DNA of 64,000 nt, from IMG/VR virus record IMGVR_UViG_3300046337_000201, positions 1 through 64,000 of that record. One strand, written 5' to 3'. The notes under the pieces were generated by a model, which worked only from the letters and a program-made list of their open reading frames with translations, was not told the DNA's origin and did no database searches. The DNA comes from a virus. This document shows positions 30,937-46,254 of the stretch, piece by piece (positions within the stretch are counted from its first letter, which is position 1; the number at the start of each line of letters is the position of its first letter). The position numbers and the translations under genes were made by a program.

Positions 30937-31425
30937 TTATTTTAATAAACTTTTTAAGTTATTCTCGTATGAAAAAGGAATAGTAGTATATATGAACCCA
31001 CTATGCACTTTAACATACCCCTCTGCATTTATCCTTAAGTCTTTTAACTTCAAAGTTAATGTAACCAAATTTACAATATTTTTCAATATTAATGTAGGAT
31101 TGAACGAAAATCTATAAGAAACATCAGTAGATTTTGTTGGAAGGATTACTATATCTTGAATTTCATTAATATTACCCACTTTGATACCATCTAAGTATAT
31201 ATCTAAATACACCTCAGTTACTACTGCTTCTACATTAGAAGCATTGTATACTCTTTGAGTAATATCCAATGCAACATCATCTTTTGATATATTGGCTATT
31301 TTGATACCAATAATCTTATATTGAATATCCTTCAAAAAGTTAATTTGTTTTTGATAATAACGATAAAGAGCAAATCCAATTACTCCTAATCCACTAAATA
31401 TCAAAATAGGTTTTAATGCTTTCAT
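30937..31425 (-). CDS. LEA_2/WHy-like domain membrane protein
   Basis: N-terminal TM; VYNASN...IYLDGIKVG. Confidence 0.6.
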   Translation of the reverse strand: MKALKPILIFSGLGVIGFALYRYYQKQINFLKDIQYKIIGIKIANISKDDVALDITQRVYNASNVEAVVTEVYLDIYLDGIKVGNINEIQDIVILPTKSTDVSYRFSFNPTLILKNIVNLVTLTLKLKDLRINAEGYVKVHSGFIYTTIPFSYENNLKSLLK

Positions 31426-32036
31426 TATTTCTTTCTTAATAATACTATTAATAAAATTACTCCTAATCCAATACCACCATATAGTAATAAATTCTTATTT
31501 GATGTAGTTGAAGTAGATGTATCAACACCTAATAAATCAGATTTAGCATTTTGTATTGATTTCTCACTTAAAGTAGTCAAAGTAGCTAATGTTTCAGCTT
31601 TTGTTGCTTCTGATTGAGCTTTTGCTTGTATAGCAACACAATCTAATTGAGTTTGTATACCTTTAAGTTTACCTTCTATTTCACGAACCACTGCCAATCT
31701 AACTGGCAAGAAAGCATCCTTTGGCTTTGCAGCTAATTCTTTTACAATAGATTCTCCTCTAGTAGACAAGCCATTCAATTTCTTTTGTATGTCATCGCAA
31801 GTCTTTTCAGGATATGCAGCCCACGCTTTTCTTTCTGCATCTTGATTTTCTTTCAAATGCTTTTTACGAAGTTGACTACCAAATAAGTTAGCCCAATCTT
31901 CGCCACCACCTTGAAAAAATTCTTGCCCCCCGGTGAAGTTTTTAAACTCTCTACTCTCATCAGCAAATTGGTGGTTACCTAATCTACTAGGAGCATGTGC
32001 ACCTTCGGTTGTTCTTTCAATCATATCTATTGCCAT
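31425..32036 (-). CDS. tail-anchored membrane protein
   Basis: C-terminal TM + RKK; N-terminal FKNFTGG motif. Confidence 0.75.
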   Translation of the reverse strand: MAIDMIERTTEGAHAPSRLGNHQFADESREFKNFTGGQEFFQGGGEDWANLFGSQLRKKHLKENQDAERKAWAAYPEKTCDDIQKKLNGLSTRGESIVKELAAKPKDAFLPVRLAVVREIEGKLKGIQTQLDCVAIQAKAQSEATKAETLATLTTLSEKSIQNAKSDLLGVDTSTSTTSNKNLLLYGGIGLGVILLIVLLRKK

Positions 32037-32069
32037 AAAATAATTTTTTCTTGTTGTTAATAATGCCTT

Positions 32070-32684
32070 TTATTTACTTTTGCTTTTAGCTAAAAAATAG
32101 ATTAATGCAATAACACCTAATCCTAATGCACCTAGTCCTATGTACTTCATCGTATTATCACCTTGAACACCTTGTGGTGGTGGATAATCGCCTTTAGCAC
32201 CCATTGTAGTGTCATTTGTTACTACATTTGAGCCAACACTAGCTTCTTGACTAGGAGGTGTATATAATGGAGTTTTTAAAATTCCACTAGGAGTAGGTAT
32301 TTTTATTCCTAAATCTTGGTTACCATATTTAGGTAATACGCTATAAGGAGTTTTACCTAAAAGACTATCAGCAGTTGGAGGAGCTATTGCTAATCCACTA
32401 TCAATTGAACCAACACCTGATTGCATATCTTTTATAGTATTTTGCATTGTGTTAATCCATGAAGATAACGCAGTTATATTTCTAGTCTTAATACGCTTAC
32501 CACCTGAAGTACTTGGTTTTGAGTTTTTTAATGTAGATAGCTCAATAGTAGCTTTCCCTATATTTTGTCTTACCTCGTTAATATCTTGACTTAAAGGGTA
32601 TTTAGATGCGAACTCATTTGCAGCTTCCGCTTTTCGTTGAGCTTCTCCACCTATTAATGTTTTTCCAAATATTGCAATTGCCAT
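32070..32684 (-). CDS. tail-anchored membrane protein
   Basis: C-terminal TM + KSKSK. Confidence 0.75.
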   Translation of the reverse strand: MAIAIFGKTLIGGEAQRKAEAANEFASKYPLSQDINEVRQNIGKATIELSTLKNSKPSTSGGKRIKTRNITALSSWINTMQNTIKDMQSGVGSIDSGLAIAPPTADSLLGKTPYSVLPKYGNQDLGIKIPTPSGILKTPLYTPPSQEASVGSNVVTNDTTMGAKGDYPPPQGVQGDNTMKYIGLGALGLGVIALIYFLAKSKSK

Positions 32685-32695
32685 AACCTTTATTT

Positions 32696-33217
32696 TTAGA
32701 TTTGATATTTAATTCCTTTTGCAGCCCAATCTTTGTTGATACTTGTTACTCTAGCACTAGTCAATCCACCCCACTCATTACCTAACTCACTTTTTACGAA
32801 AGTAAATAAGTCCATAGGATTACCGACAGGGATTCCAAAAGCATAATTTTGTCTATTTCCAAAAGCTGCTATCAATTTAGCAACATCTAAATTATTTTTC
32901 ATACTTTTTAAAGTACTTTCCACCGCAGCGTAATCATCCCCAACTGCATATCTCATACCATTATAAGCAGTATTAGCAAAAGTTACATAGTTACTATCTA
33001 AATACGTTGGCTTGTCACCATTAGATTGAGCAACCTTAATTTCACTACTAATGTTATTTACAAGTTCTTGATTCTTTTTAGCTTGGTCAGTAGGAAATAC
33101 TTTATCGTAAACTCTTTTACCTACTAAAAAAACTATTGCTCCACCACCAACAATAACGATACCTTTCGCCCATGATGGTAAGTCTTTGTAATAATCGTAA
33201 AATCCTGCTTTTGCCAT
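32696..33217 (-). CDS. membrane protein with N-terminal TM and helical domain
   Basis: LPSWAKGIVIVGGGAIVFLVG. Confidence 0.7.
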   Translation of the reverse strand: MAKAGFYDYYKDLPSWAKGIVIVGGGAIVFLVGKRVYDKVFPTDQAKKNQELVNNISSEIKVAQSNGDKPTYLDSNYVTFANTAYNGMRYAVGDDYAAVESTLKSMKNNLDVAKLIAAFGNRQNYAFGIPVGNPMDLFTFVKSELGNEWGGLTSARVTSINKDWAAKGIKYQI

Positions 33218-33227
33218 AACTTTAATT

Positions 33228-34034
33228 TTAATAGCCTACTGCGTAGACATCTTTTATTTTATATTCTTCTATATAATCTCTAATGAACTTATTGATTATA
33301 TCATATCTTTTTTTATTTTGCTCACTTGGGTAACCTATAAAAGTATCTCCAAACGCAGCATAAGCTTCTCTAATTGGATAACCTAATCCTAAGTATATAG
33401 TTAATCCATTCAAATCAGCCTCAGTTTCATTCGTTATATCACTATTTAAGTAAAAGTGACTAAACTCGTGTAACAATATTGCCATTCTCATTGGAATGGT
33501 ATAAGGTAAGAAAGACTCTTGAGATACTTGTATTCTACCATTTTTAGTAGAAATACGAGCAGGAGTAGCCATTTTCTCGCCACTTTTATTATTCTTAATG
33601 TATGGTAGGTATTCTATTTTAAAGCTCCCTACACTACTTACATAGTCTTTTGGGGCACTAATCCAACCCGCATTGTAACAAAACTTTTGAGCAAATGCTA
33701 CAAAGTTGCGTACCATTGAATTATCCATCTTTGTTTTACCCAAAGTAATATCTAACTCTTCTTTCTTAATATCTACTACTTGAAAGCTATTATCTTGCCC
33801 CTTTTGTAAATTGCCATTAGCCTTATTGTAAACCGATAAACTTGTTGAATATGGAGAAAGAGGCATTCTTACGAAAAGTTCTTCTTGTCCATTAATAGTT
33901 TTTTCTCTATCGGTGAAATAAGTATTAGCTTGGTTTTTATCGAACACTTTCACTACAATCACTTGAGGTGTTTGAGTTTTAATCACGATTTTAACCATGA
34001 TTGGTTCGTAAAGGGTAAGTAGCTTATAATTCAT
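33228..34034 (-). CDS. HExxH zinc metallopeptidase, candidate virion maturation protease
   Basis: ILLHEFSH followed by ETEAD (third ligand). Confidence 0.75.
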   Translation of the reverse strand: MNYKLLTLYEPIMVKIVIKTQTPQVIVVKVFDKNQANTYFTDREKTINGQEELFVRMPLSPYSTSLSVYNKANGNLQKGQDNSFQVVDIKKEELDITLGKTKMDNSMVRNFVAFAQKFCYNAGWISAPKDYVSSVGSFKIEYLPYIKNNKSGEKMATPARISTKNGRIQVSQESFLPYTIPMRMAILLHEFSHFYLNSDITNETEADLNGLTIYLGLGYPIREAYAAFGDTFIGYPSEQNKKRYDIINKFIRDYIEEYKIKDVYAVGY

Positions 34035-45155: not shown

Positions 45156-45156
45156 T

Positions 45157-45282
45157 TTATCCTTTTTTTAAAGAATTACTAGCTCTTTTAATAGCAGCAA
45201 TCCAAGATTCACCCTCTTTTCTAATCTTTTTTGCAAGTTTAGAAATATCTGCAACATTGATTTTTTTTGTAGCCTTTGCCAT
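45157..45282 (-). CDS. 41-aa basic protein (not in ORF track)
   Basis: MAKATKKINVADISKLAKKIRKEGESWIAAIKRASNSLKKG. Confidence 0.7.
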   Translation of the reverse strand: MAKATKKINVADISKLAKKIRKEGESWIAAIKRASNSLKKG

Positions 45283-45300
45283 AATATTATTATTTTATAA

Positions 45301-45414
45301 TTATTTACCTTGACCTTTAGCCCATCCTGCTGAAGCTATACGAAATACTAAATAGATACCCGCTAAACCTAAAGCATAACCAATAACCATTGGTACTATA
45401 TTTTTATTATTCAT
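45301..45414 (-). CDS. 37-aa membrane peptide (not in ORF track)
   Basis: MNNKNIVPMVIGYALGLAGIYLVFRIASAGWAKGQGK. Confidence 0.7.
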   Translation of the reverse strand: MNNKNIVPMVIGYALGLAGIYLVFRIASAGWAKGQGK

Positions 45415-45469
45415 AACTATTTTTTTTTAAAATTACAATTTTTTAATTATATTTTGTTCTTATTATATT

Positions 45470-45790
45470 TTATTTTCTTGTTTGAGACCAATACCATAAA
45501 CCATATATAGCTAAAGTACCTCCAATTAACCATCCCCACTTTGCTTTATTAGTCATTGCCTCTACTCCACTAACTTCTTTTATATTGTCAATTGGTAACG
45601 CAATTCTAGGTTGTGTTATAGTCCAATTAGGCTCTTCCCCATTAACATCGGTATATATAGTTACATCTTTAGGGTCTTTGGGGTTTGTGCTACCCTCAAC
45701 GATTTCATCTACTAAAAATGCTCTATTAGCTTTAACTCCACCTATTTCATAAGTAGTGAAAGTATCTTTTAGTAATTTGTATTTTGCCAT
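45470..45790 (-). CDS. tail-anchored membrane protein
   Basis: C-terminal WGWLIGGTLAIYGLWYW. Confidence 0.7.
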   Translation of the reverse strand: MAKYKLLKDTFTTYEIGGVKANRAFLVDEIVEGSTNPKDPKDVTIYTDVNGEEPNWTITQPRIALPIDNIKEVSGVEAMTNKAKWGWLIGGTLAIYGLWYWSQTRK

Positions 45791-45807
45791 ATTATTATAT
45801 TTTATAT

Positions 45808-46254
45808 TTATTTATCTCCATTAAATGCATCGTTCCAAAATGTAGCTTCATCACCAACGAATGACTTTGTTGGATTTTGAGCAAGTCTTTTTTTAACTTC
45901 TTTGTCTACTTCAATATTTTTATTAACTGCCCCTAGAACCAATCCCCCCGCTGCTATTGCTAATAACACTCTAGCATTGTTTTTGTATTTACCACCAAAA
46001 GCATATATACCTGAAAATAAAGCAACATACCATAATGAAGTCCATAAGTAATATTCCCCTGCTACATGCCATTCTAGGTTTTCAGCGGTAATTAAATTCT
46101 CATCGTAGTCTCTTTGTAACTTATTTACTCTTCTAAAATATATACCATCAAAAGGAGTAGGCATAGTATTAGCTATTGCCGCTGCTATCAATGCAGTATA
46201 AATTAATGTATTTCCATTTCCCTCTTTAACTACCTTACTTATTCCTAAATCCAT
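45808..46254 (-). CDS. multi-pass membrane protein
   Basis: Two to three hydrophobic segments; C-terminal KSFVG motif. Confidence 0.7.
   Translation of the reverse strand: MDLGISKVVKEGNGNTLIYTALIAAAIANTMPTPFDGIYFRRVNKLQRDYDENLITAENLEWHVAGEYYLWTSLWYVALFSGIYAFGGKYKNNARVLLAIAAGGLVLGAVNKNIEVDKEVKKRLAQNPTKSFVGDEATFWNDAFNGDK

Follow-up and report, generated by a model that had tools for sequence, protein, structure and literature searches.

This work concerns a short tag of the form [FYM]-x-[NS]-[AF]-x-G that recurs in otherwise unrelated proteins of an uncultured virus, as seen in a window of 64,000 nucleotides (positions 1 to 64,000 of IMG/VR virus record IMGVR_UViG_3300046337_000201). Comparisons of the encoded proteins with those of related contigs indicate that it is a genuine and conserved feature, specific to the block of genes that builds the particle. 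This block (also called late or morphogenesis block below) extends from 31425 to 46254 and encodes a coat-type protein of 231 residues, a P-loop ATPase, a PAP2 phosphatase, an HExxH protein and many small membrane proteins with one terminal helix. In the interpretation that we tentatively favour, with slightly less than even confidence, the tag is a short linear signal for assembly (docking or sorting), with or without later trimming. The original prediction, made by a model from the DNA alone, had proposed a virion-wide maturation cleavage signal, or capsid-docking motif, read by the HExxH protease. The virion-wide character of the signal is supported here, as the tag is conserved, confined to the morphogenesis block and found together with an intact-looking zincin, the name used hereafter for the HExxH protein.

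A tag shared by unrelated proteins of the late block

The pattern [FYM]x[NS][AF]xG occurs six times in the 28 open reading frames of block 31425-46254 for 0.50 expected, a count that none of 300 shuffles reached, and the narrower [FYM]xN[AF]xG occurs five times for 0.24 expected. Outside the block, the strict pattern is found six times against 2.4 expected, and four of these six fall in fibre repeats. Since the pattern had been defined after inspection, it was retested on independent data, i.e. 18 divergent related contigs, in which it appears 78 times for 11.5 expected and always on the strand of the coat gene. The enrichment over a shuffled background that had been anticipated is thus borne out both in the block and in relatives. 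The conservation of the motif in homologues holds as well, since the alignment column that it occupies does not change between orthologues, whether of the coat leader or of genes 36787, 31425, 35314, 35746, 36033 and 45808 (genes are named here by their first coordinate). The clearest case of a tag column that is kept amid drifting flanks is the 36787 family, across about 50 loci.

A broader survey gave the same picture. After clustering of the 2507 distinct proteins of all loci into families, about 12 unrelated families were found to carry the tag in 23-87% of their members for 1-8% expected; the ATPase, the 39502 protein, the PAP2 phosphatase and the zincin are at background. When all 4-of-6 patterns in a reduced alphabet were enumerated de novo over 101 families (weighted by family, membrane helices masked, shuffle-normalised), [FYW]-x-N-A-x-G came first with 4.9 observed for 0.34 expected (z 7.8), the next pattern reaching a z of 4.7. 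Enumerations based on exact residues or raw counts were dominated by the composition of membrane helices and poly-Lys stretches, and only the shuffle-normalised version was informative. These data bear directly on the view that the tag is a chance or compositional artefact of low-complexity linkers rich in Asn, Gly and Ala. Its appeal lies in the post hoc definition of the pattern and in the abundance of N, S, G and D in the linkers, but composition-preserving shuffles return only 0.5 and 11.5 where 6 and 78 are observed, the column persists between variable flanks and the pattern ranks first in the enumeration. Chance is effectively refuted by the column conservation, the 18-contig test and the de novo ranking, and we regard it as extremely improbable.

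The extended consensus reads [D/E]-x-[F/Y]-x-[N/G]-[A/F]-x-G in polar and probably disordered surroundings. F and Y are equally frequent at position 0; position 2 is mostly N (67% of cases) and sometimes G (15%); position 4 is S or T in about one third; and the last Gly is invariant. Such residue usage discards the N-x-S/T sequon and tyrosine sulfation as a rule. More generally, a covalent modification of the tag by viral enzymes (glycosylation or sulfation) is in our view very improbable, as is its use as a cohesive aromatic "sticker" for an assembly condensate. The genome does encode glycosyltransferases, and the tandem aromatic-x-Gly elements with acidic spacers found in some proteins do recall FG-type repeats. 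However, none of the residues that could be modified is invariant, which makes a modification unlikely, and most proteins carry a single copy of the tag, too few for a network. Regarding position, the tag lies 10-140 residues from a membrane anchor, on either side of it, and many tags are either 15-45 residues away from a terminus or located between the domain and the anchor of their protein. The distances and sides relative to the anchor do not fit a sortase- or exosortase-like sorting signal, which we reject; besides, zincins are not known to form an acyl-enzyme.

All the motif instances listed in the original prediction are present at the genes named, on the minus strand, as confirmed by translation spot checks, and are collected in Table 1 with those identified here. 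As a set they are real, with weaker conservation for 42869, 43293 and 45808. In 36787, YMNFSG scores above the position-specific scoring matrix (PSSM) threshold of one expected match per proteome. Gene 35314 also carries LNANG, and 43293..44405 encodes a Thr-rich tail-anchored protein with chitin-binding-like Cys modules. An analysis of the co-variation between tag variants and residues of the zincin or of the coat had no statistical power, because single genomes contain both Asn and Gly variants and the sole clade-wide shift is a single event.

Placement of the tag and a possible docking function

Several features of tag placement are, on sequence evidence, in favour of docking rather than cleavage: its presence at fibre tips, in mini-proteins and in tandem clusters. 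In several lineages, fibre- or collagen-like proteins carry the tag within their first 15 residues and continue with a Gly-rich linker (28323, fam88, fam85, L015_8574, L073_18507 and L116_17885). A cut at such an N-terminal tag would remove only a few residues, whereas peptides that anchor a fibre by its N-terminus are well known. Mini-proteins of family fam15 provide a second case. The part that is constant across their tandemly duplicated paralogues consists of a membrane helix, a short and basic "KPK" spacer and E-G-F-[FY]-x-A-x-G, and some of these proteins stop 1-6 residues past the tag. Tandem tags with acidic spacers, as in the coat leader and in 36033, fit a multivalent binding to an oligomeric partner. 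Finally, the terminal peptides adjacent to the tag are the best conserved parts of 31425 and 43293.

The paralogous mini-genes are themselves organised in tandem arrays of at least six members in two related loci (L021:14343-16509 and L031:223-504), each encoding the helix, the KPK spacer and the tag, then either a variable Cys-rich tail or almost nothing.

From these features, we propose that the tag would mark particle-bound proteins and that a common partner would capture tagged proteins during the building of the particle. The tag is found in flexible segments of four protein classes: the coat protein (two or three copies in its leader), single-pass and tail-anchored membrane proteins, helix-plus-tag mini-proteins and fibre-like proteins (at their extreme N-termini). 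The partner would be the jelly-roll coat lattice, or alternatively the beta-sandwich domain of the zincin. Through such contacts, the shell would be tied to the internal membrane and to the fibres, and viral membrane proteins would be sorted into the virion membrane. After docking, the zincin may remove the tag or the adjoining peptide; this dock-then-cut sequence, for which vaccinia A17, D13 and I7 and the T4 capsid-targeting sequences with gp21 offer parallels, is possible and the model does not require it. Docking, the identity of the partner and any cutting are all inferences.

The candidate partner, the coat-type protein, has an AlphaFold2 (AF2) model with predicted local distance difference test (pLDDT) values of 80-94 over residues 56-203 and below 50 over residues 4-55. 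Fold matches are weak (none above Z 6) and generic for jelly rolls, viral jelly rolls reaching only Z 5-6 and being intermixed with non-viral sandwiches. The family comprises 1047 metagenomic homologues, all unnamed, and is represented on 54 viral contigs; no match was found in Pfam or PHROGs for the coat or for the membrane proteins, nor any relative of the coat among cultured-phage records. In most relatives, the leader contains F-x-N-A-D-G, L-S-F-T-G and F-F-x-A-x-G, in that order and within 30 residues.

A paralogue of the coat jelly roll is encoded at 16345-16875 (minus strand), with 31% identity over residues 109-203. It has neither leader nor tag, and its gene adjoins that of a spike-like protein of 1295 residues.

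A putative metallopeptidase in the same block and possible cleavage

A zinc metallopeptidase gene had been placed inside the tagged block, and this assignment is supported by a confident two-domain model and by invariant candidate catalytic residues in a core gene of the virus group (33228..34034, in which HEFSH is present as described). The AF2 model, built with 23 homologues, has a mean pLDDT of 90.3. Its N-terminal domain (residues 1-95) resembles CBM and GOLD domains, and its second domain (110-264) aligns moderately (VIA-align) with BepA/YfgC (M48, 6sar; Z 7.9, 123 residues aligned, root-mean-square deviation 4.0), 3c37 (Z 6.2) and abylysin (4jiu, Z 5.9), Foldseek E-values being 0.003 or weaker. 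Across 23 sequences with identities as low as 36%, residues H189, E190, H193, E203, E205 and D207 never vary. HEFSH sits in a predicted helix (180-195), while E203, E205 and D207 open the helix 203-216 and probably include a metal ligand; the spacing of 10 between the second His and Glu is far shorter than in BepA. As in M48 peptidases and minigluzincins, the modelled fold is probably that of a zincin, in which the active-site helix bears HExxH and the helix after it Glu/Asp. Unlike them, this viral enzyme has no Pfam or PDB sequence match, a 10-residue His-Glu spacing and a catalytic domain fused to a CBM/GOLD-like beta-sandwich. Indeed, no Pfam peptidase at an E-value of 0.01 or better, no PHROG, no PDB sequence match with the family profile and no relative among cultured-phage records were found, the only lead from the Atlas being a weak one to DUF4344. 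The family forms 815 clusters at 50% identity, nearly all of about 260 residues, viral and without a characterised member. The gene accompanies the coat gene in 48 of 54 loci and was found in 67 loci by its own search, and zincin and tag co-occur out to the most distant relatives traced (protease identity 35-41%). On the basis of the model, the HExxH protein is most likely an active, if putative, metallopeptidase. No other peptidase was recognised in the window by library scans, 11 kb of the contig lying outside it.

These observations raise the possibility, in our opinion unlikely, that the tag is purely a maturation cleavage code. In that case, the zincin would cut at or just after the tag, both in the coat leader and in linkers of membrane proteins, much as T4 gp21, phiKZ gp175, adenain and poxvirus I7 act on motifs of their own; the coat would lose its leader of about 43 residues and domains would be freed from their membrane anchors. 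Such a code would account for the status of the zincin as a core gene with invariant catalytic residues, for its joint occurrence with the tag in even the most distant relatives and for the position of tags in disordered linkers near termini or between domain and anchor. The two tags of the coat leader resemble sites of propeptide fragmentation, the tag always ends in a small residue (Gly) and the window offers no second recognised peptidase. Other traits of cleavage-code systems are also present, namely one short motif on many unrelated virion proteins including the coat, and a putative protease in the morphogenesis module. However, cuts at residues 1-6 of fibres or in mini-proteins with 1-6 residues after the tag would be pointless, the peptides to be cut off are strongly conserved, and the cargo polyproteins have at their module junctions another motif with more of the look of a processing site.

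Conversely, some points weigh against docking. A conserved and apparently active protease in the same block requires a substrate. A cut just past the final Gly is still compatible with N-terminal tags and with mini-proteins. For tail-anchored proteins with poly-Lys tails, the positive-inside topology is ambiguous, and that the tags face the coat is an inference because membrane topology is not reliably predictable. Finally, AF2 leaves the coat leader undocked on its own jelly roll, in a monomer model in which an inter-subunit pocket would not show. Docking followed by cutting fits everything that we see. In its strongest form, the tag would be a universal sorting and anchoring signal: the jelly-roll lattice would capture tagged proteins and exclude those of the host, and the zincin would then clip the tags and free the shell from the membrane. 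We hold this full scheme to be improbable, below the pure cleavage code.

The junction motif mentioned above, hydrophobic-[A/E]-x-G-G, is present six to eight times in each of the modular cargo proteins 49340, 51733 and 60188 (49340-61390, minus strand), which carry the polyvalent-protein domains DUF2958, DUF5661 and ART-PolyVal. A homologue in a related locus (L123:1590-3578) has a much longer chain of modules joined by a doubled E-K-G-G-Y-M-A-K-G-G, and the modules are reshuffled between genomes. From its sequence context, the motif looks like a processing site at polyprotein junctions. As the sole recognised peptidase, the zincin may therefore serve this motif, the tag or both, the junctions being a candidate substrate no less plausible than the tag. 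That it processes the cargo at these junctions while the tag is read by something else is a doubtful reading, about as unlikely as the pure cleavage code, and one that overlaps with docking of the tag. The number of motifs per protein, the module chain of the homologue and the polyvalent domains speak for it, together with the lack of another recognised peptidase in the window. Against it, the zincin gene belongs to the membrane-protein block, 15 kb from the cargo block, the comparison covers two close relatives of 49340, and the 11 kb of contig beyond the window could hold another peptidase.

Table 1. Positions of the tags, and of the coat and zincin genes, in the window.
Feature	Position	Strand	Remarks
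Coat-type protein, 231 residues	37304..37999	-	Conserved acidic disordered leader (1-55) and single jelly roll (56-203)
FFSADG, last tag of the coat leader (residues 38-43)	37871..37888	-	Column kept as FF-x-A-x-G in relatives at 45-92% identity
FIGVDG, degenerate first tag of the coat leader (residues 19-24)	37928..37945	-	F-[SAV]-N-A-D-G in most relatives
YMNFSG, on the linker that joins the N-terminal domain of 36787..37197 to its C-terminal membrane anchor	36901..36918	-	Same column in about 50 loci; flanks vary
FGFTG, YSFVG, YFGFLG and GFLGLG, tandem tags with acidic spacers in tail-anchored 36033..36782	36432..36533	-	FSNANG or YSNAVG there in distant orthologues
YFNASG and VNASG, after the N-terminal membrane helix of 35746..36015	35824..35865	-	Best PSSM score in the window (17.6)
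YMNAAG, gene 35314..35727	35404..35421	-	YMNA[ST]G in close relatives; tag in 8 of 10 family members
FKNFTG, after the conserved 30-residue N-terminal peptide of tail-anchored 31425..32036	31929..31946	-	Column YKNFSG, YLGFTG or YSNASG out to L016
YANAVG, after the conserved N-terminal peptide of 43293..44405	44295..44312	-	Only partly conserved
EMNASG, variant without aromatic residue near the C-terminus of 42869..43288	42914..42931	-	Conserved only in the sub-clade of the window
TKSFVG (KSFVG in the original prediction), loose variant near the C-terminus of multi-pass membrane protein 45808..46254	45853..45870	-	Only x-x-F-[ST]-G kept in relatives
SSFLG and SFGFIG, tag-like elements at residues 2-15 of fibre-like 28323..30209 (628 residues), then a Gly-rich linker	30165..30206	-	Outside the range covered by the original prediction
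Two-domain zincin	33228..34034	-	Beta-sandwich (1-95) and gluzincin-like domain (110-264); HEFSH 189-193, ETEAD 203-207

Relation to known assembly and maturation systems

The tag invites comparison with known virion address or cut codes. In phage T4, gp21 cuts at L/I-x-E sites and internal proteins carry capsid-targeting sequences, and prohead proteases of the phiKZ type (phiKZ gp175) are similar. The likeness lies in one short motif borne by the N-terminal piece of the coat and by unrelated head proteins, in a targeting peptide joined to the cut site and in a protease encoded in the morphogenesis module. These systems differ in belonging to tailed phages, whose coats have the HK97 fold and whose protease is a serine enzyme with another fold; such phages have no internal membrane, and their motifs end in Glu instead of Gly. 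Adenain of adenoviruses cuts at (M/I/L)XGX-G and (M/I/L)XGG-X, and the tail of the adenovirus fibre docks into the penton base through FNPVYPY. Adenoviruses belong to a jelly-roll capsid lineage and have Gly-containing cut sites throughout the virion; their short aromatic anchor at the fibre N-terminus resembles the N-terminal tags of the fibre-like proteins described here, and the adenain consensus resembles the second motif, hydrophobic-[A/E]-x-G-G. They differ by their eukaryotic hosts, their cysteine protease and the separation of docking and cutting motifs, and no homology to adenovirus proteins was detected here.

The closest functional analogue is the A17/D13/I7 system of vaccinia virus. 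There, D13, which forms a jelly-roll scaffold, attaches to the N-terminal tail of the membrane protein A17, and both ends of A17 are cut at AG|X in an I7-dependent manner, after which the scaffold is lost (PMC4213562). Docking and cutting thus operate on membrane proteins under a jelly-roll shell through a short Gly-containing motif. Unlike here, however, the virus is eukaryotic, the protease is a cysteine protease and one main protein docks, compared with a bacterial host, a zincin and about 10 families plus the coat, with putative roles in docking and cutting. The docking-peptide architecture known from the adenovirus fibre and from A17-D13 has its match in the present virus: a terminal short motif with a flexible linker on fibre-like proteins, and helix-plus-tag mini-proteins. 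The zincin, for its part, is not homologous to the serine or cysteine proteases of these systems (T4 gp21, phiKZ, adenain, I7 and African swine fever virus pS273R), no Pfam or PHROG match having been obtained.

Viruses of the PRD1, PM2, P23-77 and SSIP-1 kind also have many small membrane proteins in the late block and, as in our scans, no tailed-phage hallmark; the coat modelled here is a confident single jelly roll, but its matches to viral ones are weak. The packaging ATPase of such viruses is of FtsK/A32 type and encoded next to the coat; the P-loop ATPase encoded here has no sequence match that would place it in this class. No proteolytic maturation is described for prokaryotic jelly-roll viruses in PMC4405056 and PMC6260650, which agrees with the original prediction in regarding such a protease as unusual in a tailless virus of bacteria. 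How proteins of the virion membrane are chosen and how this membrane is tied to the shell are poorly understood in tailless phages, even in PRD1 and PM2. A tag found on the coat, the fibres and about 10 families of membrane proteins in a widespread group makes these questions directly accessible to experiment, with peptides, point mutants and one candidate enzyme as tools. Should the zincin cut the tag, proteolytic maturation would extend to the prokaryotic branch of jelly-roll viruses; a tag that only docks would be the equivalent in bacteria of the fibre-penton contact of adenovirus and of the A17-D13 contact of poxviruses. A signal that sorts proteins and is then clipped would give prokaryotic jelly-roll viruses their first maturation protease and their first dock-then-cut code, independent of poxviruses. 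In either case, virion proteins that homology searches miss in the metagenomic genomes of this group could be flagged by the tag.

Genome setting and neighbouring genes

The window is the first 64 kb of a linear virus contig of 75,160 bp, estimated by CheckV to be 67% complete, and its minus strand holds nearly all genes from 7.8 kb on. The P-loop ATPase gene lies just upstream of the coat gene; its Walker A and B motifs are invariant and it has no match in Pfam, PHROGs or PDB sequence searches. More than 20 single-pass or tail-anchored proteins are encoded in the late block. No terminase, portal or HK97 coat was recognised by Pfam and PHROGs among the window proteins scanned, 11 kb of the contig being outside the window. 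The virus group is apparently one of large, tailless, membrane-lined, bacterial and uncultured viruses. A bacterial host is deduced from three clustered genes for peptidoglycan hydrolases on the minus strand, i.e. a GH108 protein with PG_binding_3 and two glucosaminidase-domain proteins (46267-46794, 48297-48791 and 48794-49336).

Regarding hosts, the metagenome-assembled genome (MAG) bins that contain coat homologues (L124-L133) span unrelated phyla: Bacteroidota, Chlamydiota, Actinomycetota, Ignavibacteriota and, among Archaea, Bathyarchaeia. These contradictory assignments probably reflect mis-binned viral contigs; Bacteroidota of the source habitats are candidate hosts. One coat homologue is located on a 132-kb contig of a Sediminibacterium MAG.

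Among the neighbouring genes, that of the PAP2-superfamily lipid phosphatase (42196-42843, minus strand; Pfam E-value 1.7e-9) belongs to the core of the morphogenesis block and occurs in 49 of 54 related loci; its product may remodel the virion membrane. Three other genes on the minus strand sit among the structural genes (41492-42196, 44421-45155 and 50963-51511): two paralogues that cluster together and read as GIY-YIG-like at their N-terminus, and one HNH/NUMOD endonuclease. As inserted genes that are missing from most relatives, all three probably encode homing endonucleases. At least eight proteins (31425-48112) have the same stereotyped C-terminal anchor, one hydrophobic helix followed by two to five Lys (e.g. 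K-K-Y-K-K), and these basic tails may face the packaged DNA. Lastly, a membrane-anchored protein encoded at 30937-31425 (minus strand) contains an LEA_2 (late embryogenesis abundant) domain, at 25.5 bits for a Pfam cut-off of 25.4, and is kept in 28 related loci.

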